In this document: positions 1,089 to 58,472 of the stretch, piece after piece
How positions within the stretch are numbered: position 1 is the first letter of the stretch
Layout: the number at the start of each line of letters is the position of its first letter
From: an uncultured bacterium
GTDB taxonomy: Bacteria; Babelota; Babeliae; Babelales; Babelaceae
Assembly: GCA_963713855.1 (NCBI GenBank)
Contig: OY970209.1
Coordinates: 1,152,001 to 1,216,000 of the forward strand
Direction of reading: 5' to 3'
DNA length: 64,000 nt
Program-made: the position numbers and the translations under genes
Notes under the pieces: model-generated
Seen by the model: the letters and a program-made list of their open reading frames with translations, nothing else
Told to the model about the DNA's origin: nothing
Databases searched by the model: none

Positions 1089-1973
1089 ATGAAAATTCCA
1101 TTTAATTTCCTTTTTCTAGGCTTTCTAGTTATAACAAGTGACTTTGTTTTGGCAAGAAAGCTCTTAAGCATGGAAGAGCGGCCAATACTACCTCCCGTTT
1201 TGATTAGGTTAGCAAAATGTGTCGAAAATGCAGACGTTAACGCGCTTATTGATAAAAAGAAGATACAGGATTGCTCGCTGATGCATCGTGCTGTACAACA
1301 TGCTGCATGCCTTATCGAAGCTCACGAGAGAGTTCAGGCAAATGCCAGCATTAAAAAAGCTTTAGAGCTATTAATCCAAAACGGCATTAACCCGAATACT
1401 GTTAGAACAGTTGGCAATAATGGACTACTTCATGCAGCGGTAATGTATAACATCAGAAATACGGAGCTTATACAAATGCTTATTGATGCCGGAGTTGACC
1501 CTCATCAGCAAAATAACCATGGCTCAAGCCCCATCGATAAAGTTAGTAATGATCTAGTCAAAATGCTTCTTGAGGCGGGCGTAGATCCAAATCATCAAAA
1601 CAGGCAAGAAGTTACTCCCCTTGATGGAATCACTCACAGTAATGATCGCCATTTTATTTCCGTTCCTAGGGAATACGAACCACTGGATCGGGAACAAAGA
1701 AGAAAGGCTTGCTTGTCTTCTACTCAGCGCCCATTCCAACGCTCGAAGGACAGGCCAGAGAGTGAAAAAGAACCTGAGAATAAAAAACGCAAGCAGAAGA
1801 GCAAGAAAGCCAGCGCTGAAAGAAGAGTTCGTATTCGTGCTCAAGTTCAGCCATTACCGGCACCGGAAGGGCAGTCGGCTACGCCTGTTACATCGGAGTT
1901 AAGCAAAATGGCAATCGGCTTTATCTTGCAAAATAAAATGGACGTCGGTTACATCAGTCCAGCGTTCAAATGA
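1089..1973 (+). CDS. Exported ankyrin-repeat protein with basic C-terminal region
   Basis: GAGGA SD before ATG 1089 (ORF open from 987); signal peptide then SMEER; GNNGLLHAAV and GSSPID ankyrin-type repeats; KKRKQKSKK. Confidence 0.85.
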   Translation: MKIPFNFLFLGFLVITSDFVLARKLLSMEERPILPPVLIRLAKCVENADVNALIDKKKIQDCSLMHRAVQHAACLIEAHERVQANASIKKALELLIQNGINPNTVRTVGNNGLLHAAVMYNIRNTELIQMLIDAGVDPHQQNNHGSSPIDKVSNDLVKMLLEAGVDPNHQNRQEVTPLDGITHSNDRHFISVPREYEPLDREQRRKACLSSTQRPFQRSKDRPESEKEPENKKRKQKSKKASAERRVRIRAQVQPLPAPEGQSATPVTSELSKMAIGFILQNKMDVGYISPAFK

Positions 1974-2060
1974 ATAGAGGAAAGAAGATTTGAGCTTATT
2001 TCACATTTTGAAAATGGCATCAATGAGATGCGCCGCAGATTGCCAGTGCCAATACACCCC

Positions 2061-2372
2061 TCACTTCTTTTTTGATCTTCTGCGCCTACAGAAGATCCCT
2101 TCCTGCACCTGAAATATGGTTATATCGCTGAAATTACTGTTCGCGGTTGCTACAAATATCACCGGTAGAGATCGGTAAAAAACTATCGAGTTGGGCACAC
2201 TAGACTCGGGAGGTAATTGCCGAGTTGATATGCTCTTTAATACTCCATTAGTAGCATTAAAGAGAGTTACATCATTTGAAAGAGCATTCGCATTTACAAG
2301 ATAAGAGCCATTAAGCAACAAGTGAGATCTCGCCTCACCTGGAAAATAAAAAATGCCATTCGATCCATCCAA
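2061..2372 (-). pseudogene. Remnant of beta-propeller blades
   Basis: NGSYLVNANALSNDVTLF...LPPESSVPNSIVF...ATANSNFSDITIF matches the blades of the adjacent gene; no signal peptide, only about 2 blades. Confidence 0.7.
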
Positions 2373-2460
2373 GATAGCTCAAAATTTAGATAAGATGGTT
2401 CTTTGTCTGGAGGGAACATTTGCCTGCAAAGTGAAGAGCGATACTGCTTACTCGTTATTT

Positions 2461-6049: not shown

Positions 6050-6083
6050 ACTAATCGGAAACACCTGTCAGTAAGGGAAAATT

Positions 6084-6320
6084 ATGAATATCTCAATTTA
6101 TGTAAATAAAGAACTTGCTAAAAAAATTACTGATCTCTCAAGGACACTCAAGCGAACGAGAAATTCTGTCATTAATGAGGCTCTTGAAAATTGGGTCAAA
6201 AAACAAAATAAATCAGAATGGCCAAAACACTTTTTTGAATTTGAAGCTCTATCTGATTTTCCTAGTTCAAAGGAATTAAGAAAAGGTTTAAAAATAACTA
6301 AAAAGGACCCGCTTGCATGA
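6084..6320 (+). CDS. vapB: Ribbon-helix-helix antitoxin (VapB/CopG-like)
   Basis: MNISIYVNKELAKKI...RTRNSVINEALENW RHH pattern; ATGA overlap with the PIN gene. Confidence 0.8.
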   Translation: MNISIYVNKELAKKITDLSRTLKRTRNSVINEALENWVKKQNKSEWPKHFFEFEALSDFPSSKELRKGLKITKKDPLA

Positions 6321-6715
6321 AGTATCTTCTTGATACGTGTACGATATCAGATCTCTTTAAAAAGCATCACGCAACGCTTGAACGTTTTAAGCGAGTTGTA
6401 CCTGCAGACCTGTCTATATCCTCAATTACTATTATGGAAATCGAGTATGGCCTGAAGCTCAATGCTGCACGGGAAGAAAAAATTCGTATACTCTGGCAAG
6501 ACTTTCTCAACGAGATTGATATTTTACCTTTCGATAATGATGAAGCCGTTTGTACAGGGTTTCTAAGAGTTCACCTCAAAAACCAAATGATTGGAGCCTA
6601 CGATTGTATGATTGCTGGAACCGCTTTAGTACATGGGCTTTGTGTCGTCACCTCAAATGTACGTGAGTTCTCGCGACTCAGCGATCTAATCAAGTTAGAA
6701 AATTGGCGTTCATAA
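6317..6715 (+). CDS. vapC: VapC PIN-domain toxin
   Basis: YLLDT, ITIMEIEYG, YDCMIAGTA, VVTSNVREF PIN motifs. Confidence 0.92.
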   Translation: MKYLLDTCTISDLFKKHHATLERFKRVVPADLSISSITIMEIEYGLKLNAAREEKIRILWQDFLNEIDILPFDNDEAVCTGFLRVHLKNQMIGAYDCMIAGTALVHGLCVVTSNVREFSRLSDLIKLENWRS

Positions 6716-8090: not shown

Positions 8091-8094
8091 AATT

Positions 8095-10072: not shown

Positions 10073-10828
10073 ATGAGCATTTATTTTTTATGCGGCATGC
10101 TCATGTTGAGCATCACCTCATTTTCGAGAGGCATGGAAGAGCGGCATCCGATTGAACCTCATGAGGCCATACTCAGCTCTCTGCTCGAAAAAAATCTCGA
10201 CCTTCGTGATGTGTATCAGATACTTCAAAACCGATCCGAACATGCGAATGAATTACTTAAAAGCATTAAGAGGGGAAAAAAATTTCTCATTAGTAGAGCG
10301 CTTTGGTATATTCGTGAACTGAGTGATCCGGATGAGCAAGGCGCAGGAAATAGCTTAATAGCTCGGGCACTGGACCGCATATCGGACCTCAACGATATTG
10401 TTGAAGAAGGCGGATCTACTTTGCTTCATACGGTCGTCAAGAGTAATAGTTCAAATGGAAATCTCGTACGCCTTGTATTGGCAAGAGGCCTTAAGCCTGA
10501 TATCGTTGACAATCAAGGCATGAGCGCAATGGATTATGCAATTAATACCGGTAACATTGGAAGCGTGAGAGCGTTAATCGATTATGACGCAAAGATTACA
10601 TCAAATCACATCTCGAGAGCTAAAAAGATTTTAAGAAGATATACATATTTAGAAGGATGGGTTGAGCCTCAGGCAATTTTGAATTTATTGGAAGAGACTT
10701 TGCGCGCTCAACAAGCCCCTACCGATATACCCGATCGCAGAGAACATTTGACTCTAGCGGAAATACTAAACCCCGGTCCTATCGAGCCAAGTGTCGAAAG
10801 TTTTAAGGTATGGGGCTTTAACATATAG
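10073..10828 (+). CDS. Exported ankyrin-repeat protein
   Basis: Signal peptide then GMEER; GSTLLHTVV and GMSAMDYAI repeats. Confidence 0.85.
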   Translation: MSIYFLCGMLMLSITSFSRGMEERHPIEPHEAILSSLLEKNLDLRDVYQILQNRSEHANELLKSIKRGKKFLISRALWYIRELSDPDEQGAGNSLIARALDRISDLNDIVEEGGSTLLHTVVKSNSSNGNLVRLVLARGLKPDIVDNQGMSAMDYAINTGNIGSVRALIDYDAKITSNHISRAKKILRRYTYLEGWVEPQAILNLLEETLRAQQAPTDIPDRREHLTLAEILNPGPIEPSVESFKVWGFNI

Positions 10829-11173: not shown

Positions 11174-12484
11174 GTGGGTAAAAAAAGGGTAGGAGCACTC
11201 ATTGTTGCACTGTTCGTGCAGAATGAAGTCTTCTTGTACGCGATGGAAGGACAACGACCTGATGAAAATGTAGAATCGGGTATCAATTCTCATCCTGACG
11301 TTTCTATGAGCGATCGATATCGCGAAAGTCGCTACAGCTTGTCCGCATCTAGATCATTCAATACGCAGACTTTTTCAGACGGATTGCTTATGGAAGCTGA
11401 GCTTATTTGCGCTGAAAAATATTTAACTGGAGAGGAACTCGCCGATTATATGCTCGCGCTCAGTAGCTTTAATTTGGAAAGAAGCACAATATTCCTTGAG
11501 CACGGCGCAAACCTTACTTATGCTTTGAAGCGAATTCTTAGTAATGCTCAAATTAAGGGCGCAGACCTCAGAAACTGGGTCTTTTTCTGCCTAATTCATG
11601 GGGCTGTGATTCCTGAAGAATTGGCGCACCGAATACCTTATATAATTGGAGGAGATAGGATAGCTGACGTAACTACAAATATAATAAATGGGTTGCCTAC
11701 TAACGCGACGGATGAAGAAGTTCGCGAACTGTTTCTTTACGCTACAGGAGGCCAAACCCAGCTTGAATTTTTAGAATCCTTGCTACTCCGATACCCACGC
11801 ATTATACAGACTAGAAATTTGCAAGAAGGATTCATTAATGCCGCATATGCGGGTCAAATAGATATACTGAAAATGTTATATGAATTCTTGCTAAAAGGGA
11901 TGGATAAGAATGATGAAACTTGGCTAGAGACTTTTTCATATGCTCTTGCCCGCGCTGCCCAACAGGGGCATTCAGATATTGTCATTACAATCCTAAATTA
12001 TGGAAGTTTACACTCCCATGATTTTAGTCTAGATATAGCTATCGGAGGCGTGGAAGCGGCTCTCAAATTAGAAGGATTGCCTGAAGAGATACGAAAAAAT
12101 TACGAGAAACTGCTTGATAGGTTACGTACAGCAAATACAACTTCTGAAAAAGACAAAGTGCTTGAACGCCTAATCATTCTATCTTCTGAACAAGGTGGGC
12201 TTGGGAACGTAGCTATATCGGTCAAGGTGCCTAAAGTGAAATCCGTTGGCAAGCGCTCCGGAGCACAAACACAGCCTTCCTCGCCTACTACACCGACGAC
12301 GCCCAGAAGGGCCATGACACCAAGAACGCCTAGGATGCGCAGAGCCCAAACTGATGTCGGACAACCAAACCGTGAAGGTAGAATTGAAAGGCCAACAAAT
12401 AGGCACAGTCGTAGAAAGAATGCTTCTATTCTAAGACGTATCTTTGGTGATAAAGAAGAGAAAAACGGAAAAAAAGGTAAGTAG
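11174..12484 (+). CDS. Exported ankyrin-like protein with basic TP-rich tail
   Basis: AAGGAG SD, GTG start; hydrophobic leader then AMEGQ; AAYAGQIDIL and AAQQGHSDIV degenerate ankyrins. Confidence 0.8.
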   Translation: MGKKRVGALIVALFVQNEVFLYAMEGQRPDENVESGINSHPDVSMSDRYRESRYSLSASRSFNTQTFSDGLLMEAELICAEKYLTGEELADYMLALSSFNLERSTIFLEHGANLTYALKRILSNAQIKGADLRNWVFFCLIHGAVIPEELAHRIPYIIGGDRIADVTTNIINGLPTNATDEEVRELFLYATGGQTQLEFLESLLLRYPRIIQTRNLQEGFINAAYAGQIDILKMLYEFLLKGMDKNDETWLETFSYALARAAQQGHSDIVITILNYGSLHSHDFSLDIAIGGVEAALKLEGLPEEIRKNYEKLLDRLRTANTTSEKDKVLERLIILSSEQGGLGNVAISVKVPKVKSVGKRSGAQTQPSSPTTPTTPRRAMTPRTPRMRRAQTDVGQPNREGRIERPTNRHSRRKNASILRRIFGDKEEKNGKKGK

Positions 12485-12661
12485 CAGGCAAGCTGGAGGG
12501 GAAGAACCTCCTTCAGCTTGCAAAAAGAGTTCGTTTTGGAAAGCACTGAGCTTAACTGCTGCTGGAATTTTGTCTGCCCGATAAAATGTTGACATGTATA
12601 AATACTATTTAAAAAAATAAATTATAAATTATATCAATATAAAATTTTATTGGGGATTTGT

Positions 12662-14113
12662 ATGAGTTTGTTCGCTAACGCACGTTGCACGATTATAAGT
12701 CTTTTTCTTTTAACGTATAGCGTGGCGGTCTTTCCTGTTGACGAAGTAGACAAAGCGAAGAGAGCGCAAAAACAAGAAAGAAAAAAAAGAAGACTGGAAA
12801 GGCACCAGCTAAATTCGGATTTAGCAACGGCGGTTGAGAGAGGAGATATCCCGGTGGCACAAGAAGCACTAGAGGAAGGCGCCGACCCAAATATAAGAAG
12901 AGGGAGCGCTTTATTAGAGGCTGGGGGAGAATTTATACCTCATTACGGCGAATCACCTACCATGATTCAAACTGCTCTACTCCTAGGCGATTTGCATATG
13001 GTACAATTCCTTTCAGGTGTTGCCAGATTTAATCCAACTGGATTACCTCGTAGATCAAGAGGTAGCCTTCTCAATTTTGCTATCCCATCTGGAAATCTTG
13101 AATTGGTCGAATGGCTTGTTGCTAAGGGAGCCGATATGCTAGCGCCAAGTGGTACCTTAGATCAAAGGCCGATAGATGTAGCCCTCGTATTTGACCAGAT
13201 GCCCATTTTTCAATACTTATTAGAGCACGGTGCTGTAATAGCTGGTGGGCCATTGAGCTTAATAGGTCAGATAATCTCAGCCTCATGGAATCAGCCAGAC
13301 CAAACAATCATAAGATCAATTGATATTGCACTGGAAAATGGGTACGACATAAATGCTCATTTTGATGATCCAAGCCCTTTGTGGCTGGCTATTAAATACA
13401 AAAAACACGGAGGAATGCTTTTACAGTGGCTTATTGAGCAAGGTGCGGCTGTCACGACATCGGTAAATAAATTACTTGCACTGCGAAAGAAAGATGATAT
13501 CTTTGAAAATCCCCTACTTGATGCCATTGCTTTTGGACGTTTTGATGAGGCTTCAAAAATCCTGACAGAATTAAAAAATAAGACGCGCTTAAGCGGTAGT
13601 AACGAATTCTTAATAGCTGCAGCACTCGGTCTTGCGTCAGCTCAGGGGTTTACCCCTGTCGTTTTAGAGATCTTAGCTCGTTTCAGCACTGATCTTCATA
13701 ATAGACAAATATTTGCCGGTGCTCTTTTGCGAGCTGCTAGAAATGGGCACTCGGACGTTGTTCAAGCAATTTTTGAAAATCAGTCTGGGGCAATTGAACA
13801 TAACATTAAAGATTGGAGACAGGACTTGAGCAGAGCTTTGCGCTTGGCAGCTCTATAGTGAAGAAAAGACGTTGTAATGGTCATTCTTACTCAAAATTCA
13901 ATCCGCAATCTGATGATCCCACTCGATCCGGCTATGAAAGCTCTTCGAGAGGTCCTTGGCCAATCTCTAAGCGAAACAATGAGAAAAGAATACACTGAAC
14001 TTTTAGAAACCCTCGAGTTCGCCGGAACACATGAGCGGTCTCCGGAAGAAAATTTACTTGGACTACCTTCGGGGATAACGCGGCAACCAGCACATGATTC
14101 ATTATCACACTAG
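12662..14113 (+). pseudogene. Exported ankyrin-repeat protein interrupted by tandem in-frame stops (TAG TGA at 13856-13861)
   Basis: ORFs 12650-13858 and 13877-14113 share a frame; the stops fall inside an ankyrin repeat; the downstream part matches paralog C-termini. The 399-aa upstream part may still be expressed. Confidence 0.7.
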
Positions 14114-21335: not shown

Positions 21336-22562
21336 TTAGGATAAATAGTGCAAAGGGACCGAGCCGGCAGCCAAATCATGAATTGATGGTAATTCGAAAT
21401 TGAGCTGTCTTTCTTGTATCCAAGAAGCAGCATCTTGCATTCCTTGTTCAAGAGCCTCGGTATACGCCTGACTAAGGTACAAGTCTCTCTGTTCAGGTTC
21501 AAGATCGAGTATTTCTTGATAGAAAAACGCTAGCAGCTTTATGTTCCCTTTACGCGCTGCAATTATAAAATACTCAAAGATTGTTTCTACCGATTGTATA
21601 AAGGGAAAAAGTTCTTCGAATAGCTCAATATCGCTACGAGTAATTGCCTCATTAAGGACTTCTTTGATTTTTTCAATGACTTTTTCATGTAAACGTTGAT
21701 TTTCTTCGCGAGAAAAAATCTTTTCTAACGTGGCTTTGTACTCAAAAAGCCAGGCTATTTCGCTCTTTTGCAGGCACACTTTGTTTTCTAAAAGGTACCA
21801 AACAAGTTTTTTAGCTCTTGCACCAATAAGATCAGTTCCAGGAGATATGGCTGTTGCAAGCGCATCGTAAAGAAGCGACTCTCTTGAGTCATCAGCTTCA
21901 ACTGACGCTTTATGGTCTCCGACAGCTTCTTCGAATAAATAACGTACGACCTTATCTGCACCGACGCGAATAGCTAGATTAATAAGCCTTTTTCCTAAGC
22001 TCCTACAAGTGCTTGGGCTTATTCTATTTATGTTGGATTTTATAAATGCTAAATCATCATTTACAAGTGCAGCGTTAACCTCACTATCATCTAAATCTAG
22101 GAGTTTTGGTGGAGAATTTTCATTAGAGATACCTGTTTGTCGAGATTGAGTGGGTTTTGTTTCAATTTTACGTTTCTTTTTTTGCGGTTGGTTGCGGCTC
22201 TCCTGGCGCTCTTGCAAGACTTGTGGGTGACGAGTTTGTGGTTGTGCAGGTCGCTGATTTAGGGCACCGCCCTGGGGCTGCTGTTGGCCGATTTGGTAAT
22301 TCTGGGGATAACTAGATCTGGCCCAGTCTACATAAGAAAGAACGGGGTTCGGAGCCTGGACTGGCGGGGGAGAAAAATAATATCCACGCGGTGGGGCTAA
22401 AAGCAAAAGAGGATACTGCACAGAGCTTGGTTGTGGCGTCGGAGCCGGATTTGGACGATCCTGCCTGAGATTTGGCGCAGTATTTGTCCTATTTTCCATG
22501 CTAAAGGCTGACTCTAGCGAAAAAGCATAAGCAAGGAAGAATAATAGAGTAGAAAGTTTCAT
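21336..22562 (-). CDS. Exported ankyrin-like protein with P/Q-rich N-terminus and NLS
   Basis: Signal peptide then SMENR; P/Q-rich region; PQKKKRKIE; LAIRVGADKVV and AARKGNIKLL repeats. Confidence 0.8.
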   Translation of the reverse strand: MKLSTLLFFLAYAFSLESAFSMENRTNTAPNLRQDRPNPAPTPQPSSVQYPLLLLAPPRGYYFSPPPVQAPNPVLSYVDWARSSYPQNYQIGQQQPQGGALNQRPAQPQTRHPQVLQERQESRNQPQKKKRKIETKPTQSRQTGISNENSPPKLLDLDDSEVNAALVNDDLAFIKSNINRISPSTCRSLGKRLINLAIRVGADKVVRYLFEEAVGDHKASVEADDSRESLLYDALATAISPGTDLIGARAKKLVWYLLENKVCLQKSEIAWLFEYKATLEKIFSREENQRLHEKVIEKIKEVLNEAITRSDIELFEELFPFIQSVETIFEYFIIAARKGNIKLLAFFYQEILDLEPEQRDLYLSQAYTEALEQGMQDAASWIQERQLNFELPSIHDLAAGSVPLHYLS

Positions 22563-31054: not shown

Positions 31055-32443
31055 TTAAATTAAATATCTGCTACGATCGGGTGTAGGTTCAAGCGCTGCC
31101 GACTGCGTTTGATGGGCTTGTTGATCAGAAACGAGGCTGTATAAATAGAGCCAAATGTTTATGTTCCCCCACTCAAAAGCCTGCTCTGCAACCACTTGGA
31201 TAGTTTGAGCTGAAATGCGTCCCGTATTATAAAGATATTCAAGTGTGTCTAACTGACAAGCGCGAGCCGATAATACAAATGCCAACTCCATAATGTCATC
31301 AGCTATAGTAAAACTGCTATGAAAATAAGCGAGCGCTTCTTCGTTTCCTATTTGAGCAACTCGAAGAAACGCCATATTTCTTATACCTTGGCTAATTTTT
31401 CTACCAAACACCCTCAACATAAACTTTATCAATGGGATATTCCCCTGCCCTGTTGCCAAAAGAAAGTACTTTTGCAATGTTTCCTCAGTCAAGCCCGCGT
31501 TGCAAATGAGCTTTTCACAAGCTTCTCTCTGATTACCACGAATAACAGCATTAATAAAAGGGTCATTCAACAATTCCACGTTTGGTAAAGAAAGAAGCTC
31601 ATTAATTTGCGCATCGTCTAGATGAGCTCCAAAAGAAAGCAAGTCAAATAAGATTTTATTAATTTCGGGGAAGCCCAAGCGACTTTTAAGCATAAAAAGC
31701 GCTGTTGCAAGCATTGTGTGTCCGTTAATATTCGGCTCATTAACATTGGTTCCGTAAGCCAAAAGTGATGATACATTGTCAAAGTTAGCGTAAGTAATGG
31801 CTAACTGGCATGGCATTATACCCATACTGTTTTTGAGGTTAACGTAAGCACCGTGCTCTATTAGGAGGTCTATCAAGCATTTTCCAGAATAAAGGGTCGA
31901 GGCAACATGAAGAGGAGTTAACGGAACTCCTTGTGGATTAAGCTCTATTCCACTACTAATGAGGAACTTGACGATCTCAAGACGTTTTGAGCGCTCATCA
32001 GCTTTTACTGTCCTATCAAAAAGAAGTATGGCATATTCTAACGGCGTAAGTGTTCCTAGGTGTAGCCTTGCCCACCAAGGATTTCCACAGTATCCCAAAT
32101 GGGTAAGCACTTGTTGTGCCTGTAGGTCCCTGACATTCACATCTGCACCAAGACCCAGAAGCGTTATTAGCACAGGGCCATCGTTGCGTTCGATAGCAAT
32201 ATGCAATGGCGTAAATCCTTGATTGTTGCGACTATTTATATCAGCGCGCTCATGCAACACAAGCTGTGTTATGGCTTCTGCATTCCCTAGAAGGACGGCT
32301 TTAAAAAGCCTTTCTGTTGCCTGGGATCTTTCCAGTATTCCCTGGTATTCCGGTGATTCTTGTCCTTTTTCCTCCATACCAAAAAGCCCCACAAAGCTCA
32401 AGGCAAAGATAGTAAAAAGGAAATACTTATTAGTTGTTTTCAT
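31055..32443 (-). CDS. Exported ankyrin-repeat protein, tandem paralog of 29193-30959
   Basis: Signal peptide then GMEEK; GFTPLHIAI; shared NPWW insert. Confidence 0.88.
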   Translation of the reverse strand: MKTTNKYFLFTIFALSFVGLFGMEEKGQESPEYQGILERSQATERLFKAVLLGNAEAITQLVLHERADINSRNNQGFTPLHIAIERNDGPVLITLLGLGADVNVRDLQAQQVLTHLGYCGNPWWARLHLGTLTPLEYAILLFDRTVKADERSKRLEIVKFLISSGIELNPQGVPLTPLHVASTLYSGKCLIDLLIEHGAYVNLKNSMGIMPCQLAITYANFDNVSSLLAYGTNVNEPNINGHTMLATALFMLKSRLGFPEINKILFDLLSFGAHLDDAQINELLSLPNVELLNDPFINAVIRGNQREACEKLICNAGLTEETLQKYFLLATGQGNIPLIKFMLRVFGRKISQGIRNMAFLRVAQIGNEEALAYFHSSFTIADDIMELAFVLSARACQLDTLEYLYNTGRISAQTIQVVAEQAFEWGNINIWLYLYSLVSDQQAHQTQSAALEPTPDRSRYLI

Positions 32444-32729: not shown

Positions 32730-34589
32730 ATGAAACTACAAAACATAGGTCTATGCGTGCTTTTCTTGAGTTTAAGCGCAAACCTTAAAGCAATGGATGG
32801 AAGCTCACTTAGCCCCGCATCGCTATTTAGCTCTACACAGCCATCGTTTGCTACATTGATAAATGCAGTGCAGCGCATGTCTTCTGCAAATGTAACTAAT
32901 GACTTTCAAGAAATTGATCGCATTCTCGAGGCTGGAAATTATACCGCTCTTCAAATCAAGCAAGCCGCTGAATTGGCTTTATCGCATAACAACAACGATC
33001 TTGCTGCGCATCTCAGGGCAAAAGCCCTTGCTAAGGAGCAAGGAACTGTCCCGCCGTCCGAACCCATGCAAGTAGACCCTGCAATTCCCGTGCCGGAACA
33101 AGGAAGTCTCGATCAAGCTGAAGAGCGTAGAGACGGAGAGCCTATGACTTTTGAAGGCGAGCAAGAAAATCCTCTAATGCGCGCCGTTCGAGGAATGGGT
33201 AGTTCAATGGACGTGACCCTCATTAATCGCGTTCTTGAAGAAGGTCCATACAGTGAAGCAGCTATTGAACAGGCGGCAAACCTTGCTCTTGCAAATAATA
33301 ACGTAGCACTAGCTCAATATCTGCGCTCAAAAAAAGAGGGTAGGGAAAAGGAAAAAGGTAAAGAAAAAGAAGGTGAAGAAGAACCGAGGGGATCAGAACC
33401 GGCTGGTGTTAATGGATTGCTTCGAGCCGTAATAGCAATGAATGATACAGGTCATCCTGATTTTGCAAAGATTGAGGCTATTTTTGCAGCCGAAACCTTT
33501 AGTGATGCTCAGATTGAAGAGGCGCGAGGCTTGGCAGAGGCTTCAGGCAATTTCCTTCTTTCACAATATCTAAGCGCAAAAATGAATAGTAAAGAACGCG
33601 AAGTTCGACTACCTCTTTCAATAGATGACCGCTTTGACCGTATGATGCTAACGGCGCGTCTCATCAATTTAGCCGATGACTATCCGAAAACCGCCAAAGA
33701 GGTTGAGGCCTTAATCGCAACTCTTCCTGTAGACGATTTAGTCGAGGCTCTTCCTCATATTAATCCTGCTGCCGTTAAAATAGTCGAAGCTGGCATAAAA
33801 TTGGCTTATGAGAGTCATGGCCAAAGACATACGTTAAGCTCGAAAGAAAGAGAACGTATTATGAGAAGAGGAGATAAAAGTTTAATAGCAGCTCGTTATT
33901 TGCGGCAATTAAGTAAAAAACCTGTGTTGGAGCCTGAAGATGAAAAAAAAGTCGATGCTTTGCTTAAGGTTATTACACAAACAGATCTTCGTATAGCTCT
34001 TGTGCTGTGCATTAAAGGCCACCCAATAGTTGTTTCAAAAATGGCCCTAAAACTCCATGGTGATGATCCAAGTTGCTCAAACACTAACGCGATTGCTCAG
34101 CTCGCAAAATTAATGGAAGATCGTCTTGCAGATCTTAGTGAGTCTGGTGACCAAGCGATAAATGAGCTGAGGTCTACTATCGCAGAGATAATAGTACTAC
34201 TTAAGAAACACTCTGACACGCTTAATGATCACGGGAGTTCGATTGCTGGTCATGCAAATAGGCTTAATGATCATAAAGGAAGGCTTGATGGCCACGACAG
34301 AGATATAAGAGACAATAAGCAGAATATCAGCCGTCACGAGAACGTATTAGATTGGATCAATACACAGATTACGAGATTATACGCGGGTCATTTTGATTTG
34401 TCGATAATAGCAGCTGGGCTTGCATTACTGCTTGGTCCTGGCGCTCTAAAGGCTACTTTTACCCTATTATGCGGGGTTGCAAATCCATTGATCGCATCGC
34501 TTGGCATGGGGGCGGCCACCATCTTGACGGTGATAATGGTCATAAAATTTTATTATGAATCCACCGCGCCGAGCACAGAGAGTCCGTAA
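32730..34589 (+). CDS. Exported protein: three helical repeats, His-heptad coiled coil, C-terminal hydrophobic hairpin
   Basis: GGAG SD; signal peptide then AMDGS; three ~55-aa repeats; LNDH/IAGH/LDGH heptads; about 50-aa hydrophobic segment. Confidence 0.8.
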   Translation: MKLQNIGLCVLFLSLSANLKAMDGSSLSPASLFSSTQPSFATLINAVQRMSSANVTNDFQEIDRILEAGNYTALQIKQAAELALSHNNNDLAAHLRAKALAKEQGTVPPSEPMQVDPAIPVPEQGSLDQAEERRDGEPMTFEGEQENPLMRAVRGMGSSMDVTLINRVLEEGPYSEAAIEQAANLALANNNVALAQYLRSKKEGREKEKGKEKEGEEEPRGSEPAGVNGLLRAVIAMNDTGHPDFAKIEAIFAAETFSDAQIEEARGLAEASGNFLLSQYLSAKMNSKEREVRLPLSIDDRFDRMMLTARLINLADDYPKTAKEVEALIATLPVDDLVEALPHINPAAVKIVEAGIKLAYESHGQRHTLSSKERERIMRRGDKSLIAARYLRQLSKKPVLEPEDEKKVDALLKVITQTDLRIALVLCIKGHPIVVSKMALKLHGDDPSCSNTNAIAQLAKLMEDRLADLSESGDQAINELRSTIAEIIVLLKKHSDTLNDHGSSIAGHANRLNDHKGRLDGHDRDIRDNKQNISRHENVLDWINTQITRLYAGHFDLSIIAAGLALLLGPGALKATFTLLCGVANPLIASLGMGAATILTVIMVIKFYYESTAPSTESP

Positions 34590-34661: not shown

Positions 34662-35306
34662 ATGCAAAAAATAAAGATTCTAGTAAGCATCATTTTTTTA
34701 GCACTCAGCGTTCACGAATATTCGATGGGCATGGAGCGTACGGATGATCATATCGATAATTTTAGTTTAGAGGAATTATTAGAGCATCTTGACACCCTAT
34801 CAGAGCCACCGCAAGAGCCCGCGACTGTTGAAGGAAGTGCTTTTGCCCTTGCTGAGGATTTTATACAAAGCCATCTTGGCGAAAGCAATCATTTGGATGT
34901 AGGCTTTCAAAATATGCCGGAGCTTCAACTAGGCGATGCCAACGCAATAGCAGCACTCTCAGCTTGGCAGTTAAACTTCATAGTACATGCTGTGAAGCTT
35001 CTGGGTATTCTTCGCGCTCAAGGTGGCGTTGCCGTTGCAGGTGAGATAGGGGACATGATGAAAGAAACGGTTAAAAGTCTTTGTTTGAATCTCATCAATA
35101 TTCTTAAAAGTGCTATCGTGGCGATCAAAGCCGAAACGGGAAATTTTGACCCTCAAATCATCGGTCACAAGATTTTACTGAGCCTTAGCAGAGCAGGAAG
35201 TATGCTTCAAACTAGGACAGAAGACATGGTTCAAGTGATGAAGTTTGCTACCTTTATGCTCTACTCGATGGTAGAAAAAGCAAAAAGTTCTTGTACAATT
35301 TCATAG
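34662..35306 (+). CDS. Exported helical protein ending in CaaX (CTIS)
   Basis: Signal peptide then GMERT; terminus KAKSSCTIS-stop. Confidence 0.75.
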   Translation: MQKIKILVSIIFLALSVHEYSMGMERTDDHIDNFSLEELLEHLDTLSEPPQEPATVEGSAFALAEDFIQSHLGESNHLDVGFQNMPELQLGDANAIAALSAWQLNFIVHAVKLLGILRAQGGVAVAGEIGDMMKETVKSLCLNLINILKSAIVAIKAETGNFDPQIIGHKILLSLSRAGSMLQTRTEDMVQVMKFATFMLYSMVEKAKSSCTIS

Positions 35307-35383: not shown

Positions 35384-36253
35384 ATGATATTTTTATTTGC
35401 TTTGCTTACACTACCTTTTACTCTCTGCTGTATGGAGGAAAGAAAGCCTATAGAGCACTTTCCAACGAGTGCTAGCAATCTTCAACTCCCAACCTTAAAT
35501 CGTGATTACAGAGATGAGGTTCGCGCAGCTATCATGCATCTTGACATAGAAACACTATGGCGCTTAAGGCGTGAACACGCAATACCGGGCCATGAATCGT
35601 CTTTTTTTAATTTTAATTACGATGATGGACAATCCCCTTTGGAAGTTGCTCTTCTGACAGGTGATATTGGTATTACGCAAGAGCTTGTAAATCTGGGTGC
35701 GGCACATATACCAAATAGCTCAACAGGGCTTTTTCCAATTCATGTCGCGATACTTTGCCACCTTAAGGAATTCGTTGTTCTTTTCGTGCATGCATTTCCG
35801 GATTCTATCGTTAGTCGAGATCGTTTTGGAAACACTCCTCTTCACGTTAATGCTCATTTTCCGGATACCATGATAGCAGAGTTTTTATTTAAGACTCGTC
35901 CCCTTCCTTCAGATGTTAATAATAATGGACAAACTCCACTCGCGCTTGCGCGGTTATGCGGCAATCCGGTACTTTCTTGGCTACTCGACGATGCGCAAGA
36001 AGAAAAATTTGGCCCCTTTATTAGTGAAGTTGACGCACTGTTCTATACGAACTTTTTGCCCGCAGGCTATTGGCGCTTGGCGCGACATACGCATAAACGA
36101 AGCAAAGAAAAAACGATCACGACAACCGAAGGTTTCCAATCTGAACGTCATTTGACACTTAGTTTAGATAGAACCACAAAGATTCAGCGAACTACGTCAG
36201 GATGCTGGTATCTTAAAGGCTGGAGGTTGGATAGATCGCGAAGGACGCAATAA
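35384..36253 (+). CDS. Exported ankyrin-repeat protein
   Basis: Short signal then MEERK; GQSPLEVA, GLFPIHVA, GNTPLHV, GQTPLALA. Confidence 0.88.
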   Translation: MIFLFALLTLPFTLCCMEERKPIEHFPTSASNLQLPTLNRDYRDEVRAAIMHLDIETLWRLRREHAIPGHESSFFNFNYDDGQSPLEVALLTGDIGITQELVNLGAAHIPNSSTGLFPIHVAILCHLKEFVVLFVHAFPDSIVSRDRFGNTPLHVNAHFPDTMIAEFLFKTRPLPSDVNNNGQTPLALARLCGNPVLSWLLDDAQEEKFGPFISEVDALFYTNFLPAGYWRLARHTHKRSKEKTITTTEGFQSERHLTLSLDRTTKIQRTTSGCWYLKGWRLDRSRRTQ

Positions 36254-40827: not shown

Positions 40828-40835
40828 AAAAGCCT

Positions 40836-41927
40836 TTACTCTGTTGTTATTTGCACAAGCTTATGCACGAACAAAGAATAATTTTTATCCCCCGTTATTT
40901 TATATTTTTCTAAACCTAGATCGATAAGTCTGCCAGCTTCTCTATAATTCACGCGAATGAATTGCGTTGACGCGTCAAGAATAAGGTATGCTTCAGAAAA
41001 TCTTCCTCCTTCAAGAGCTTCATATAAGGCCGTTACCCCATTATGATCTTGTGCATTAACAAATGATGTTTCCGAGCTATTAATGACTTTTTGGCAAAAC
41101 ATTACGATGATTTTTTCGTTTTTTATCGTCGTTTCTAAAAGTGCTATCACATGTAATAATCGCACTTTTATTTCTTCGATGTTGGCGTATTTTAGAGCAG
41201 ATTCTAGAATCAACTTAATTTCACCAAAGCCGACAGCATATGCAATTCCTCTAAGTGTATGCCCAATATCGTCAAATGTTAGTGTATTTATTTGCCTAAG
41301 AAGTTCCAGAAGTCTTTCTATGCTCTCGCGATTATGTGGCGCAATTTCGAGAATCGAGACAGTAGCCTGAGCCAACTCGTGTTCTATCGTTTGAGGCGTA
41401 ATTTGTCCCTGAAGCATTCTGCTGCATATATCAAGTATGAGGTGTCTGACTTGTGCGTTAACTGCTGGGTTATCGGCTATCATTGATGCGCGCATGACCA
41501 TTTCGCTTAGCCGAAACTCAAAACCTTGAGCAATATGAATGAGCGCATCGCGTATCTCACCGTTACTTGCACCAAGAATAGCCGATAGATGGAGTGGTGT
41601 TCTTCTTATATTGGCATCTTGAATTATGGGCACCCCACTTCTTAAAAAATAATCAACAGTGCTAGGAAGGCCTCTGTATACAGCAAAATCTAAAGGCGGA
41701 AGACCACGAGACACACCTTGCAAATGGGCACGTTCATCTATAAGAAAGCCCGCCTCTACAACATCTTCCCCTGCTATAGCCGCTAAGAGCCTGTCGTAAT
41801 TAGCCCGATGGCTAACTGGAGGGCTATCAGGTAGAGGGTCATGCAGAAAAGCCCACTCCATCGGTCGATTGTGAGAAAAAGCAAGAAGAAAAGTGATTAT
41901 AACAAAATGCATTTTAAATATGTTCAT
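40836..41927 (-). CDS. Exported ankyrin-repeat protein with helical insert
   Basis: Probable start MNIFK (ORF open to 41981); signal then PMEWA; GLPPLDFAV, RTPLHLSA, GVTALYEAL. Confidence 0.8.
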   Translation of the reverse strand: MNIFKMHFVIITFLLAFSHNRPMEWAFLHDPLPDSPPVSHRANYDRLLAAIAGEDVVEAGFLIDERAHLQGVSRGLPPLDFAVYRGLPSTVDYFLRSGVPIIQDANIRRTPLHLSAILGASNGEIRDALIHIAQGFEFRLSEMVMRASMIADNPAVNAQVRHLILDICSRMLQGQITPQTIEHELAQATVSILEIAPHNRESIERLLELLRQINTLTFDDIGHTLRGIAYAVGFGEIKLILESALKYANIEEIKVRLLHVIALLETTIKNEKIIVMFCQKVINSSETSFVNAQDHNGVTALYEALEGGRFSEAYLILDASTQFIRVNYREAGRLIDLGLEKYKITGDKNYSLFVHKLVQITTE

Positions 41928-42033: not shown

Positions 42034-42690
42034 ATGTTCATTAATGCATCAACCACAATACGTGTGCTATCTTTTGCGATGCTTCTAGGGGCATCTTCAT
42101 GCTTTTCTATGGAAGAGGGCGAAGAATCTTCGGAAAGGCTGACTGAAACAAGTAAATTGGTATCTGAAATGCTAGCAAGCACAGCTTTGGGTCGTCTACA
42201 GACTGCTCTAGGATACAGTTCGGCTTCGCGAGATCATGTCTTTTTTAGGCCAAATGTACAAAGAGCTCAAGACATCGTTCTTGAACTATTGCAAAATAAC
42301 CCTTCCGAAGAATTACTTAATACAATACTCCCCTATTTAGCTCAAGTTGTAGAACGTTACGATGATGATATCGGTAGCATACACTGGCGGGAGTTATTCA
42401 TTGCTCTTGCTGCATCGGTTAGTTTGAGTGAAACGTCCATCGGTTTTTTGGTTGTATTGTTTATAATTAGTATATGGGTTAAACATGCAGCATTATCGCC
42501 TAATCATTTAACCAAAGGAAACCTTACATTACTTAGATCTTTAATGGTTGATATAGTGCAGTATATGAAAATTAACCAAATGGAACCAAATCGCTACGCA
42601 CTGAAAGTACTTAACCCAGAAATGGTAATTTCTAATTTGCTCAGCAGTATTAGCAACAATGCCGAAGACAAGGGTGAAAAAAAAGAATAA
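42034..42690 (+). CDS. Exported hypothetical protein with one hydrophobic segment
   Basis: GGAGG SD; signal then SMEEG. Confidence 0.7.
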   Translation: MFINASTTIRVLSFAMLLGASSCFSMEEGEESSERLTETSKLVSEMLASTALGRLQTALGYSSASRDHVFFRPNVQRAQDIVLELLQNNPSEELLNTILPYLAQVVERYDDDIGSIHWRELFIALAASVSLSETSIGFLVVLFIISIWVKHAALSPNHLTKGNLTLLRSLMVDIVQYMKINQMEPNRYALKVLNPEMVISNLLSSISNNAEDKGEKKE

Positions 42691-47002: not shown

Positions 47003-48070
47003 TTATAACATGTAAACTTCCTTGTGCGTGTTCAATCGAACGAGGCTTTGCGTGATGGATCCTTCATCAAAGTTTGGAAGAATAAGCTCCGAGATCATTT
47101 CTTCAAAAAGCTTATCTATATCCTCACTAGACACATCAATTGGTTGATCCTGGTGCAACAAATGCTTCTCGATGAGTTCTTTGATAACGTAGTAATTCAA
47201 TTGAATCTGTACGCTCAACAGGGGGTAATTACCTTCGCGGCCGCTGAGTATGCGATAGAATTCATTAAACATCAGTTCTGACAGTCGTTCACTCAAGGCA
47301 CTTAGCTCCTCGTCATAAGATTGTCTACTAAATGCTATAAGCCTTAACAAATAACTAAAAACGTCAAATCTGCCTTGAAAAGCAGACAGTGTACAAGCTC
47401 TTTTTATATATTCAAAAAGGGAGATGACGAGTTTATGTAAAGCGATGGCTTTACCCATGCTAGCTGACGGCGTTTGATGATTATTTAGGTACCGCATACA
47501 AAGAGCTACAATACTTTTGATTGCTGAAAGATGGCCTGCTGCAGCTGCTCTTACAAGCCCTTCACCTAAAACGTGAAGTAGATGCTCTTCGTTATCATAG
47601 TTACGCAAAAAGATCAATTGCCCAGCGTTTTGAAGAAGGCTAGTTAAACCCTGGCCCGCCGACATACGAAAGACCCGTTCTAATTCCTCATTTGGTAGAT
47701 CTTTGTGACAGTCAAGCAAAGAAAGTATAGCCTTTTCTTCTTTATGCATCGCAATAAGACGTAATAGTCTATTTGGCATGATGTATGTTTTTTTAGCTTT
47801 CCTTAAAAATCTTATCCCATATTCACTGAATAGTGGAGCAAAACGGTGGTTTTCTTCTCGAGAAAAAGAGGTTGTAACACGTTCTATAAAATAACCACTG
47901 TCTACTTCATAGCCATCTTGCAAAAGCGCTTCAAGCCTTTTGGCGTTAAATGAGTCATTAAAAATAGATTCTGTATGAACGTAAATTGACTTAATATCAA
48001 TTCCAGGATATTGCATAGCACGTGCTACTGAAAAAGTAAGAAGCCCAATAAGTATAATAGGTGGTTTCAT
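47003..48070 (-). CDS. Exported ankyrin-like protein
   Basis: Signal then AMQYP; SAGQG, AAAAGHLSAI and SAFQGRFDV degenerate repeats as in 11174 and 12662. Confidence 0.72.
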   Translation of the reverse strand: MKPPIILIGLLTFSVARAMQYPGIDIKSIYVHTESIFNDSFNAKRLEALLQDGYEVDSGYFIERVTTSFSREENHRFAPLFSEYGIRFLRKAKKTYIMPNRLLRLIAMHKEEKAILSLLDCHKDLPNEELERVFRMSAGQGLTSLLQNAGQLIFLRNYDNEEHLLHVLGEGLVRAAAAGHLSAIKSIVALCMRYLNNHQTPSASMGKAIALHKLVISLFEYIKRACTLSAFQGRFDVFSYLLRLIAFSRQSYDEELSALSERLSELMFNEFYRILSGREGNYPLLSVQIQLNYYVIKELIEKHLLHQDQPIDVSSEDIDKLFEEMISELILPNFDEGSITQSLVRLNTHKEVYML

Positions 48071-51509: not shown

Positions 51510-51520
51510 CAAATATATAT

Positions 51521-52494: not shown

Positions 52495-53436
52495 TCACCG
52501 TGGGCTTAAGAGCGCGAGTATTTTGGGGCTTCTTTTATAAAGTTTTGCGATATCTAAAGGCGTATTTCCGATACAATCGCCTATTTTTAATGAGGAGCCT
52601 GCGCCTATCAGAAGTTGAATAAAATCAGCCTCGGCAAATGCAGCAGCCCAATGTAATGGGGTAAGACCGTCCGAATCTTGTGCATTGCCGGAAGCACCTT
52701 TTTGCATGAGCTTTTTTGCCAAAAAGTGCATATTTCTACGTGCAGCCCAATGCAAAGGTATTCTTTTGTCGTTATCGCTTATTGTCGCTGACGATCCTGC
52801 GTTAAGAAGTATATCGGCAGCTTTTTTTGCACCAAGCTGAATAGCGTGAACAAGTGGCGTTTGGCCATTCACATCTTGCGCATTTAGGTTTGCCTTGTAA
52901 GCAATAAGAAGCGCCATACTTTTTTCATCGCCGCTGCGAGCACTTTTGTGTAGCGGCGTTTCCTGATCGCGGTCTTTTGCTTCGATTGCAGCGTTTTTGC
53001 GTATAAGCACTTCTGCAGACTTAAAGCGCCTATAATAGGTAGCCTCATGCAATGGGGTTTTTTGTAAAGCGTCCAATGCGTTAACATCAGCGCCATTTTC
53101 GATCAAAAGCTCTACAATCGAAGGATTGTCTTGAAAAGAGGCTAAATGTAATGGTGTTTGATTAAAAGAATTAACAGCATTTACAAGAGCACCTTTGCTC
53201 AAAAGAGTTTTGACTATATCTTTATAACCATAAGCACTTGCAAGGTGCAAAGGCGTATTACCTACAGCATCTTTCGCATTGATATTTTTAGCTTGCCCCA
53301 TAAATGGCAAAATTTCATTCACATCACCTAAGGCAACAGCACAATGGAGAGCCTTGCATTTTTCTTCCCCTCTTTGGGCAAAGCTTAGCGCGCATGGGAT
53401 AATGGTGGCCGCAAAAACGTAAACGAAACTTTTCAT
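52495..53436 (-). CDS. Exported canonical ankyrin-repeat protein (about 8-9 repeats)
   Basis: AGGAGG SD; MKSFVY start overlaps the upstream stop; repeated G/QxTPLH. Confidence 0.92.
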   Translation of the reverse strand: MKSFVYVFAATIIPCALSFAQRGEEKCKALHCAVALGDVNEILPFMGQAKNINAKDAVGNTPLHLASAYGYKDIVKTLLSKGALVNAVNSFNQTPLHLASFQDNPSIVELLIENGADVNALDALQKTPLHEATYYRRFKSAEVLIRKNAAIEAKDRDQETPLHKSARSGDEKSMALLIAYKANLNAQDVNGQTPLVHAIQLGAKKAADILLNAGSSATISDNDKRIPLHWAARRNMHFLAKKLMQKGASGNAQDSDGLTPLHWAAAFAEADFIQLLIGAGSSLKIGDCIGNTPLDIAKLYKRSPKILALLSPR

Positions 53437-54491: not shown

Positions 54492-54739
54492 AGTGTCTCA
54501 AAAATAATGTTTTTAATAGTTTAAAATAAAAATGGCAAAAAATACAATACTATAAGAATTTTTTAAGATATTTCGTCGATGTTTCAAAATAAAATAAATC
54601 TGCTATATATGTTAATGCACTTACTCTTTAACAAACATATATTTGCAAATTGACAAATATAACAGCCCAGATATAGTAAAAGTGAAGCCTAATGCATTTT
54701 GAAAAAGCGCTTTTATGCGTAGTCTTGAAAGGAATACCC

Positions 54740-55390: not shown

Positions 55391-55395
55391 TGCTT

Positions 55396-56514: not shown

Positions 56515-56522
56515 AAAGTTCC

Positions 56523-56606
56523 TTATTTCACGGCAATGCTTGGTATTTGAAATTATTATACCTCGCTCGGATTTTTATTTCAATATTTATGGCTAAACTG
56601 AAATAA
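56523..56606. promoter_or_regulatory. Two inverted-repeat operator-like sites upstream of fic
   Basis: TTATTTCA-N17-TGAAATTA and TTATTTCA-N16-TGAAATAA. Confidence 0.55.
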
Positions 56607-56610
56607 CGAG

Positions 56611-56646
56611 AAAAAAGCCCGGATGTAAAGGAAATTACATCCGGGC
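56611..56646 (-). terminator. Intrinsic terminator of 56670-58472
   Basis: GCCCGGATGTAA-loop-TTACATCCGGGC followed by T6 on the minus strand. Confidence 0.75.
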
Positions 56647-56669
56647 CGAAAATAGAGAGCAAAAATGTC

Positions 56670-58472
56670 TTAGCTCACTTTTGGAGCTTCCTCACTTTTA
56701 ACTTCAGGAGTTTCAGCTTTAACTTCGGGAGTTTCATCAACTTTCTCAATTACTTCTTCGTGTGTAAGATAGCCGTAAATTCTTTCAGAAAGGACTCCTG
56801 CAAAAGCGACGATAGCGCCAACGCCAACAGCAAGACGGCTTCTTGACCAACCCGTACTTACCGGAGCTGCCGGAGGTTGACTTTCAATAGAGTCACCGAC
56901 GCCTTTATTAGATTTATTCAGCTTATCTTTAAGCTTCTTTGTACCATCCTTAACCTTATTCGTAGCTTTTTCAAACGCTTTCTTAAGCTTTGAAGGTTTG
57001 TCATTGGTTGGTTGATCGTCTTTCTTATTTAGCTTCTTCTCGATCTCTGTGGGCTCACCGTTCGCAGGCGGAGCAAATTTCTCAGGCAATGTAGGATCAA
57101 GCTTACCCGGTACTATATTATTGCTTCCACTTTCCACTTCAGGAACAATCACAGCAACACCTATTGTATCACTTGTCCCCCGAACTCTGTCACCTGGTAC
57201 CGGGTCCTCTATCATTGAGTCAACATCAGTCAATAGGCCAACATCAGTCGCGTCATCATCACCTTCAACAACTGTCACAGGCTCTTGATCAGTTTCCGGC
57301 CTTATTTCTAGACTTGCCTCTAAAACTGAAGCCTCTTCAAGGTTAAAATCTTCCTCCGGGATATCTTTTGAAACTTCTTTTTCTTTTTCTCGTTCACGAG
57401 ATTCGCTTTGCACAGGTGCAGGGCGACGCCTTATTTGAGAAGTTCTGTCATCAAAAGGAACATTAAGAGCAGTTTCTATGCGAGAAAGCATGAGAGGTCG
57501 ACTCGCAGCGAGCATGCGAGGTGTTTGACCCTCCCTATTTGGTAAGTCAACAATACCTAGTAGAACAGTAGGGTCAACGTCTGCTAGAACAGCATACAAA
57601 AACAAAATCTGATCGCTCATGATAGCAAGATGTAAAGGCATATCTCCATTACGGTCGGCTCTCATGAGTACCGTGGGACAGGTTTCAATCATGCGTTTTA
57701 TAAGCTTGGTCAATGATTTAATATATTTCTTGATTCGCGATTTTGAAGAGCCCTCTTTAAAATGAATTTTTCGTAAGAGCATATGGAGCGGGGTCTTTCC
57801 GGCTTTATTTTTTCTATCAACTGGAACTCCCGCATCTAGCAATATATTTGCTATGTTAGGCAATCCTGCATGGATGGCCAGGTGAAGAGCAGAATTATCA
57901 CGAGCATCTACATGGCTCAGTATCTCAGGCATATTACGCACAAAATGCCTAACTATCCCCTCCCTGCCTGTACGTGAGGCAAGAAGAAAGAAAGTTTCTT
58001 GATTCCGATTCCTCAGAGTCGCGCCTTCAGGTCGCTCATGCAATAATACTGTTAACCCCCTTACGTTATTATTTATGACCGTGACGTGAAACGCTGAGTC
58101 TCCTTGATCGTTAACAGCTGCAAAATTTGCGCCAGCGTTAAGAGCGGCTAAGACATCTGTCACGGTAGCCTCAGAGTCTCTTGCTGCAGCTCGAAAAAGG
58201 AGATCATTTACTCCTTCGTGAGAGGCTAAACTTAAAGGTTTCGCCTCACCTCTCTTCTCTTTTTTCTCTTTTCTTGCTCTTTCTGTAGTTGGAGATCTTT
58301 TGACTGCGTCCGCTAACTTTCCACGCAATCCTGAAATAAAGCCACCCCGTTTAGGGGTTTCCGGCTTTTTGGGAGTTTCTTTGGGGTCATCTTCCCCACC
58401 TTCCATGGCCTTGAGAGGTTGAAGGGAGCATCCAATCAAGATCGCACCCAAAAGCATATGTTTTCTATTCAC
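56670..58472 (-). CDS. Exported ankyrin-repeat protein with acidic linker and C-terminal TM
   Basis: GAGGA SD, GTG start; signal then AMEGG; GDSAFHV, SALHLAI, GKTPLH, GDMPLHLA; TM LAVGVGAIVAFAGVL. Confidence 0.88.
   Translation of the reverse strand: MNRKHMLLGAILIGCSLQPLKAMEGGEDDPKETPKKPETPKRGGFISGLRGKLADAVKRSPTTERARKEKKEKRGEAKPLSLASHEGVNDLLFRAAARDSEATVTDVLAALNAGANFAAVNDQGDSAFHVTVINNNVRGLTVLLHERPEGATLRNRNQETFFLLASRTGREGIVRHFVRNMPEILSHVDARDNSALHLAIHAGLPNIANILLDAGVPVDRKNKAGKTPLHMLLRKIHFKEGSSKSRIKKYIKSLTKLIKRMIETCPTVLMRADRNGDMPLHLAIMSDQILFLYAVLADVDPTVLLGIVDLPNREGQTPRMLAASRPLMLSRIETALNVPFDDRTSQIRRRPAPVQSESREREKEKEVSKDIPEEDFNLEEASVLEASLEIRPETDQEPVTVVEGDDDATDVGLLTDVDSMIEDPVPGDRVRGTSDTIGVAVIVPEVESGSNNIVPGKLDPTLPEKFAPPANGEPTEIEKKLNKKDDQPTNDKPSKLKKAFEKATNKVKDGTKKLKDKLNKSNKGVGDSIESQPPAAPVSTGWSRSRLAVGVGAIVAFAGVLSERIYGYLTHEEVIEKVDETPEVKAETPEVKSEEAPKVS

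Follow-up and report, generated by a model that had tools for sequence, protein, structure and literature searches.

We analyzed a 64,000-nucleotide stretch of DNA (the window) from an uncultured bacterium of the family Babelaceae in the phylum Babelota (assembly GCA_963713855.1, contig OY970209.1, positions 1,152,001 to 1,216,000), together with the genome from which it comes (G000). We found that about 90 exported proteins of this genome carry a methionine, mostly as Met-Glu, directly behind the predicted signal-peptidase cut. This N-terminal signature, referred to here as the tag, had been noticed by a first-pass annotation in 12 genes of the window.

The genome is a single contig of 1.52 Mb. 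Its YchF protein shares 62-64% identity with YchF from Babeliales and Dependentiae genomes and 47% with that of an alphaproteobacterium, in line with a place in Babeliales (Dependentiae, Babelota). Genes were called independently, and N-terminal signal sequences (leaders) were recognized by a rule blind to the motif. A protein was scored as tagged when [GASCT]-Met-[EQHND] lay within 16 residues of the hydrophobic core, with shifted windows as controls. By this rule, 94 of the 662 leader proteins were tagged genome-wide, while the shifted windows gave 8, 10, 22, 4 and 15, a strong enrichment of the kind that the first-pass annotation had proposed to look for with Met followed by Glu or Asp. The counts in the shifted windows indicate that about 10 of the 94 are false, and an M16 peptidase, a D-Ala ligase and two propellers among them are plainly spurious. 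The 94 proteins fall into 56 BLAST families, the largest of which holds 24. At position +2, where the rule allowed five residues, Glu was found in 69 proteins, Gln in 9, His in 7, Asn in 6 and Asp in 3; Glu (26) and Gly (13) stood out at position +3, and the following 20 residues are polar with few hydrophobic ones.

The residues before the methionine fit a leader of the Sec pathway and signal peptidase I, with a basic n-region, a hydrophobic h-region, a small residue at -1 and a small or aliphatic residue at -3. Position -1, which was part of the selection rule, was Gly in 34 proteins, Ala in 24, Cys in 15, Ser in 15 and Thr in 6, and position -3 was Leu in 32, Ala in 16, Ile in 11, Ser in 11 and Val in 8. 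Proteomics has shown a signal peptidase I variant that has Leu or Ile at -3 and Ala or Ser at -1 (PMC3509430). Cleavage sites were predicted with a home-made model that was trained on 378 Met-free leaders and sees positions -13 to -1 only. The model placed the methionine exactly at +1 in 40 proteins, compared with 9 to 14 at offsets of +1 to +4 and 1 to 3 at negative offsets, and of the 48 blind-predicted sites that have Met, 29 carried Glu and 5 Gln at +2. The predicted sites thus peak directly before the methionine, in agreement with the earlier proposal that signal cleavage would expose it.

It was also proposed that the methionine may be an alternative internal start codon, which would give a leaderless cytoplasmic isoform, and the tag Met codon is necessarily ATG. 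However, a Shine-Dalgarno match of at least 4 nucleotides preceded 66% of first ATGs and 6% of inner ATGs (p = 6e-18), the share being 46% for cytoplasmic starts and 16% for random internal Met codons. Since the inner ATG lacks this signal and the next residue is Glu rather than any codon starting with G, an internal start or a Kozak-like signal was rejected; translation from the inner ATG is extremely improbable. The synonymous codons around the tag Met follow genome-level usage.

On the other hand, the methionine may be a historical scar, left as the old start of an acquired gene fused behind a leader or spread as a copied leader cassette, without present function. Paralogue expansions do inflate the counts (24 of the 94 in one family), and leader styles specific to lineages exist. 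Against such a scar, the tag occurs in 56 families without excess leader similarity between them: amino-acid identity across families was 12.6% for tagged and 12.9% for untagged leaders, and third positions agreed at 28% and 27%, respectively, by which a shared cassette was rejected. Within families the methionine survives while the leader and the residues from +3 onward diverge, Glu is second at only 21 of 293 true starts compared with 69 of the 94 tagged proteins, and the tag recurs in a second phylum. A scar, already largely refuted, is therefore very unlikely. The results on start signals, codons, leader similarity and conservation within families place the signal at the protein level, under selection.

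The tag most likely marks host-directed cargo, and not envelope housekeeping proteins or propellers, as judged from the domains encoded. Among leader-bearing ankyrin proteins 39 of 58 were tagged, compared with 55 of 604 other leaders (odds ratio 20, p = 4e-23), while 3 of 58 leader propellers were tagged, two of them spurious. A Pfam scan of 49 further tagged proteins gave 9 with ankyrin repeats, others with RING, NUDIX, LHH nuclease or AAA domains, and 28 without a match. The co-occurrence with eukaryote-like domains that the first-pass annotation had foreseen was thus found. It had also held that the tag marks no propellers, beta-helices, Cys-rich proteins or enzymes, which is correct within the window and fails genome-wide for the enzymes, since NUDIX, LHH nuclease, AAA ATPase and RING proteins are tagged. 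In a scan of 114 of the approximately 570 untagged leader proteins, those within fetched regions, the envelope housekeeping proteins included both secretins, GspC, OmpH, FKBP, a PBP, a solute-binding protein, and M23 and M15 peptidases. Within the 60 residues that begin the mature protein, basic clusters resembling nuclear localization signals were present in 10 of 91 tagged proteins and in 12 of 494 untagged ones (p = 7e-4). The RING, F-box, AAA, kinase and DnaJ domains, some of which come from the relatives described below, depend on ubiquitin machinery or on ATP, neither of which is available in the periplasm; the cargo is therefore most likely host-acting.

Several other exported proteins of G000 were observed. 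Two pairs of adjacent ankyrin paralogues (703211-706200 and 767197-770650) each have one copy with Met-Glu and one that has lost it, and are natural controls. An exported family of seven members of 245 to 305 amino acids, all tagged and essentially without Pfam match, is encoded at 597337-599298, 1077983-1079753, 1272706-1274525 and 1438564-1439310. Three propeller-family proteins (813493, 1010091 and 1430832) have a leader followed by Met-Cys, a Met variant distinct from the effector tag. Five paralogous GNAT-family acetyltransferases with signal peptides, all untagged, are encoded at 716643-719880, 817782-818858 and 1500871-1501947; since they need acetyl-CoA, they may be host-acting. As candidates for a conserved acetylating partner they found no counterpart, the same query giving no exported GNATs in 40 other phylum genomes.

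The spread of the tag within the phylum, whose described members parasitize protists (PMC6561590), was analyzed with a DNA pattern for a leader followed by Met-Glu in 151 phylum genomes, using the pattern with Met and Glu swapped as the control. The pattern gave 1187 matches and the control 211. At least 8 matches were present in 48 of the 151 genomes, spanning 8 of 18 families, while the control reached 6 at most; 80 genomes had 3 or fewer. In unselected 100-kb samples, 24 of 55 leaders of the relative G131 and 17 of 51 of the relative G140 were tagged (controls 0 to 2), on proteins with ankyrin, leucine-rich repeat, Skp1-like, DnaJ, calcineurin-like and AAA domains. Two genomes titled Pseudomonadota, G164 (L074) and G162 (L087), are both tag-rich; their YchF proteins are 63% and 57% identical to that of G000, nearer to Babelota.

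The key control came from G012 and G063, two relatives poor in Met-Glu but rich in ankyrins. In G012, the methionine was kept in 38 of 51 ankyrin leaders (controls 6, 5 and 1), and position +2 was Gln in 10, Ile in 6, Leu in 6, Val in 5, Arg in 5, Thr in 2, Ala in 2, Glu in 1 and Gly in 1, some of these counts being inflated by paralogues. In G063 the methionine was found in 24 of 74 ankyrin leaders (controls 2, 5 and 2), and Pro followed by Ala or Met in 36 of 74 (loci L187-L195). Met at +1 forms the conserved core, and an acidic residue behind it, though common, depends on the lineage.

The tag was also found outside the phylum. A strict scan that took in every GTDB genome gave 43 loci, and those in Babeliales/Dependentiae mostly had tagged neighbours, as did the locus in Alphaproteobacteria bacterium 41-28 (G160). 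Among the 101 soluble leaders encoded in 400 kb of G160 taken without selection, 20 were tagged (Glu in 14, Gln in 4, Asp in 2; controls 3, 1, 2 and 1), two of which look like signal anchors. The tagged proteins include two F-box proteins, a kinase, tetratricopeptide repeat and Sel1 proteins and one S66 peptidase, and 14 of 22 had no match. On a contig of 306 kb, one tagged gene is flanked by an ATP synthase zeta gene, an alphaproteobacterial marker, and by gspE-gspF, an arrangement that speaks against contamination. A tandem array of six signal-anchored proteins was also noticed in G160 (L120:14418-19425), two of which were scanned and matched PTP-like phytases.

The order of G160 was weaker, with 141 matches compared with 90 for the swapped control (26 genomes), and unselected samples from it gave 1 of 53 (G170) and 1 of 34 (G182) leaders tagged; we do not claim that the whole order is rich in the tag. 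Tagged neighbours lay beside the selected matches in G511 and G380, two alphaproteobacteria with small genomes. Rickettsiales were at background level in 61 genomes, with 0 of 24 and 1 of 18 leaders tagged in small samples, and similarly small samples gave 0 of 32 for Flavobacteriaceae and 0 of 13 for Cloacimonadales. A plasmid search gave nothing. Because the strict pattern is insensitive, with only 1 match in G000, its zeros are weak evidence of absence, and a search with position +2 relaxed added little; the 35% in-frame expectation for pattern matches is too low, the Rickettsiales background being 76 of 150.

G000 encodes one signal peptidase I, which serves tagged and untagged leaders alike; with only one present, a second dedicated signal peptidase was rejected. 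Its type II secretion parts comprise GspE, GspF, GspG, four further pseudopilin-type genes, GspC, a PilM-like protein and two secretins, and it has ATP/ADP-translocase-family genes. Such translocases and secretins were reported for all TM6 genomes (PMC4776705). In Babela, which grows in a vacuole, type II secretion is the sole secretion system and 79 of 126 ankyrins have signal peptides (PMC4378268); a second step would therefore be needed. Among the alphaproteobacteria, G160, G174 and G380 yielded a GspF homologue, and none was found in G511 or the Rickettsiales control G229. When leader proteins were compared by tblastn with about 0.8 Mb of alphaproteobacterial DNA, only housekeeping genes and secretins were returned and no shared translocon, a comparison too partial to exclude one.

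We propose that the exposed Met-Glu lets exported proteins pass in the host cytosol as stable eukaryotic proteins that escape N-degron pathways, a reading to which we give an even chance. Sec export and signal-peptide cleavage would leave Met, mostly Met-Glu, at the mature N-terminus, type II secretion would carry the cleaved protein out of the bacterium, and the new N-terminus would then be presented to the host N-degron pathways, where it would mimic a stable eukaryotic N-terminus and avoid degradation. These pathways treat N-terminal Arg, Phe, Leu, Asp, Glu, Asn and Gln as destabilizing, and N-acetylation shields NatB and NatC substrates from UBR4 (PMC11371169). The stabilizing role is supported by the tagged F-box and kinase proteins of a second phylum (G160) and by the G063 ankyrins, which often start with Ala or Met. 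Both residues are classically stabilizing at the N-terminus, and two Sec-secreted Listeria proteins reportedly obey the host N-end rule. Phytoplasmas likewise export proteins by Sec and are bacteria without an outer membrane. In their effector SAP54, a leader followed by Met-Asp was found at 14 and by Met-Asn at 5 matching places among 25 homologues (PMC8026896, supplement file 5); the available text of that paper lists the 25 homologues without mentioning the methionine. A rule imposed by the host is the simplest account of this convergence, though with no more than an even chance of being right.

Several observations weigh against stabilization. If avoiding degrons were all that mattered, Ala, Ser, Thr, Val or Gly would do as well, yet Met is present in 42 of 58 ankyrin leaders of G000, and G012 has Met-Leu, Met-Ile and Met-Arg, dipeptides prone to act as degrons if unacetylated. 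By the tag rule 19 of the 58 leader ankyrins are untagged, or 16 if any small residue or Pro is allowed before Met, and the first mature residue of these 16 to 19 Met-less proteins appears to be Asn, Asp, Gln, Ile, Val or Tyr. The crude cleavage model ranks the methionine first in only 5 of 11 window genes, the five exported GNATs, which would need acetyl-CoA, are untagged, the phytoplasma support rests on one protein family, and crossing of the vacuole membrane is left unexplained by a stable N-terminus. NatB is mainly co-translational and ribosome-bound, though active on peptides in vitro (PMC7782713). The first-pass annotation had linked the signature to the NatB substrate rule. The rule fits G000, although Asp is seldom the second residue there (3 of 94) and the 7 proteins with His fall outside it, and also G131, G140 and G160. 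It does not fit most G012 ankyrins, which keep Met in spite of mostly non-NatB second residues, and so is not general. It is doubtful that NatB itself is the driver.

Alternatively, the exposed Met-(Glu/Gln/Asp) and the polar stretch behind it could be an address tag by which bacterial machinery, be it a periplasmic chaperone, the type II secretion system or a vacuole translocon, would tell effectors from other exported proteins. We regard this as the main alternative, though a tentative one. It would explain better why Met is used instead of any safe residue and why G012, in which Met is kept while +2 varies, tolerates Met-Leu and Met-Arg, whereas the low share of Met in G063 (24 of 74 leader ankyrins) speaks against it. 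G000 has all type II secretion parts, and GspF homologues were found in 3 of the 4 tag-bearing alphaproteobacteria tested but not in the Rickettsiales control. However, no shared candidate translocon emerged from the comparison of about 0.8 Mb, identical specificity would be required in two phyla, and SAP54 has the same N-terminus in bacteria without an outer membrane. The second step deduced for Babela would suit an address tag (PMC4378268), and Glu, Gln or Asp at +2 matches the remnant that cleavage leaves of the Plasmodium export motif PEXEL, itself needed for export (PMC2682620), although the tag is not a PEXEL. Met-Glu might then be the first linear N-terminal sorting signal for Sec and type II cargo, with a machinery that moves effectors out and across the vacuole, a bacterial counterpart of PEXEL/PTEX that two phyla of protist endosymbionts evolved or came to share. 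We rank stabilization in the host cytosol slightly above an address tag, and both can hold together.

A purely periplasmic role, in which tagged proteins never get beyond the bacterial envelope or the lumen of the vacuole and the methionine only tunes cleavage or periplasmic stability, is improbable. Some ankyrins with signal peptides are known to stay periplasmic, such as RARP-1 of Rickettsia and Bd3460 of Bdellovibrio, an S66 LD-carboxypeptidase is among the tagged alphaproteobacterial proteins, and the host export of tagged proteins is itself a prediction. But one signal peptidase I handles both kinds of leader, true envelope proteins are untagged, and the RING, F-box, AAA, kinase and DnaJ cargo would find neither ubiquitin machinery nor ATP in the periplasm.

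The 12 motifs listed in the window are real: each occurs once, in frame, 17 to 28 residues past the start codon and directly after the hydrophobic stretch. The coordinates first given for them are gene starts, and the methionine lies 48 to 81 nucleotides further in. In the following, the residue before the hyphen precedes the predicted cut. On the forward strand, ankyrin proteins are encoded at 1089..1973 (S-MEER, Met at 1170, with a basic C-terminal stretch), 10073..10828 (G-MEER, Met at 10133) and 35384..36253 (C-MEER, Met at 35432); 11174..12484 (A-MEGQ, Met at 11243, with a likewise tagged paralogue elsewhere in the genome), 32730..34589 (A-MDGS, Met at 32793) and 34662..35306 (G-MERT, Met at 34731) have no Pfam match, and the last forward gene is 42034..42690 (S-MEEG, Met at 42109). 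On the reverse strand, 31055..32443 (G-MEEK, Met at 32377) and 56670..58472 (A-MEGG, Met at 58406) encode ankyrin proteins, 40836..41927 (P-MEWA, Met at 41861) has a weak ankyrin match, 47003..48070 (A-MQYP, Met at 48016) has no Pfam match, and 21336..22562 (S-MENR, Met at 22499) has a Pro/Gln-rich part followed by an unassigned domain. The methionine was the top-ranked site of the blind cleavage model in 31055..32443, 35384..36253, 42034..42690, 47003..48070 and 56670..58472. The residue before it is Gly, Ala, Ser or Cys in 11 of the 12 and Pro in the gene starting at 41927, a less common variant that recurs in other members of the phylum; with Pro at -1 (window 41864, and some G063 leaders), either signal peptidase accepts Pro or an X-Pro dipeptidyl peptidase trims afterwards.

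The claim that the tag marks ankyrins holds in part, since only 6 of the 12 window proteins have a Pfam ankyrin match, one of them weak, 5 have none and 1 has a weak unrelated match. Moreover, three leader ankyrins of the window lack the methionine: 29193..30959 (reverse strand), which adjoins and is related to the tagged gene 31055..32443, 12662..13858 (forward) and 52495..53436 (reverse). Untagged enzymes with leaders in the window are a sulfatase, FGE, PI-PLC and a His-phosphatase. No Pfam or NCBIfam model covered leader and Met in the 12 window proteins, and an ESM Atlas search with one tagged N-terminus gave no usable match. At 12650-14113, the untagged ankyrin gene stops at 13858 and a frame of 78 amino acids follows directly after the stop, possibly a split gene. 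Judged by eye, a small gene followed by a PIN-domain-like gene (6075-6715) and two short genes resembling a HigB/HigA pair (347-875) are likely toxin-antitoxin modules.

Babelota have no injection system, yet encode scores of eukaryote-like proteins with ordinary signal peptides. For the phylum and for little-studied alphaproteobacterial symbionts, the tag would be a simple sequence predictor of host-directed effectors, including many without known domains. If imposed by the host, it would mean that bacterial effectors have converged, across the whole repertoire, on the eukaryotic N-degron code; if read by a machine, type II cargo choice, a long-open question, would become testable by a one-residue change.

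Among known systems, PEXEL (RxLxE/Q/D) resembles the tag in that cleavage near the signal sequence exposes Glu, Gln or Asp at position 2 of host-bound proteins of a vacuole-dwelling parasite (PMC2682620). The tag differs in having no RxL (neither Arg at -3 nor Leu at -1 is conserved), a fixed Met instead of x, signal peptidase I as the predicted protease and no known translocon; of the PEXEL-type residues, the G012 ankyrins have only Gln at +2, apart from one Glu. For Listeria LLO and ActA, what becomes of the protein in the eukaryotic cytosol depends on the residue that loss of the signal peptide exposes, to go by the titles of Schnupf 2007 and Moors 1999, but these are single proteins, one of them destabilized, whereas the tag places a whole effector repertoire of diderm bacteria on one N-terminus. 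The NatB dipeptide rule (Met followed by Asp, Glu, Asn or Gln; PMC7782713) is followed by 87 of the 94 tagged proteins; the tag differs in its rare Asp, its occasional His and the second residues of G012, and NatB in its place at the ribosome. The phytoplasma SVM signal (PF12113; SAP54/PHYL1) likewise has a leader followed by Met-Asp or Met-Asn on a Sec-exported, host-acting effector, but it is one conserved leader family, while tagged leaders are mutually unrelated. PF12113 had no match over the cut-off in G000, G131 or G160, and an SVM search in a Bacilli order, one without phytoplasmas, gave nothing.

The ankyrins of Babela massiliensis and Chromulinavorax destructans share phylum, cargo and the proposed Sec and type II route with the tagged set (PMC4378268, PMC6561590), but the available parts of those papers note only signal peptides and mention no motif behind the cleavage site. 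In the literature on the motif or the lineages, including the Babela, Chromulinavorax and TM6 genome papers in the parts available, we found no description of the tag, subscription journals and the supplements of those papers lying outside this coverage. Eukaryotic parasites are known to have effector signatures that cleavage exposes at the N-terminus, and the tag is the first of this kind that we could find in diderm bacteria.

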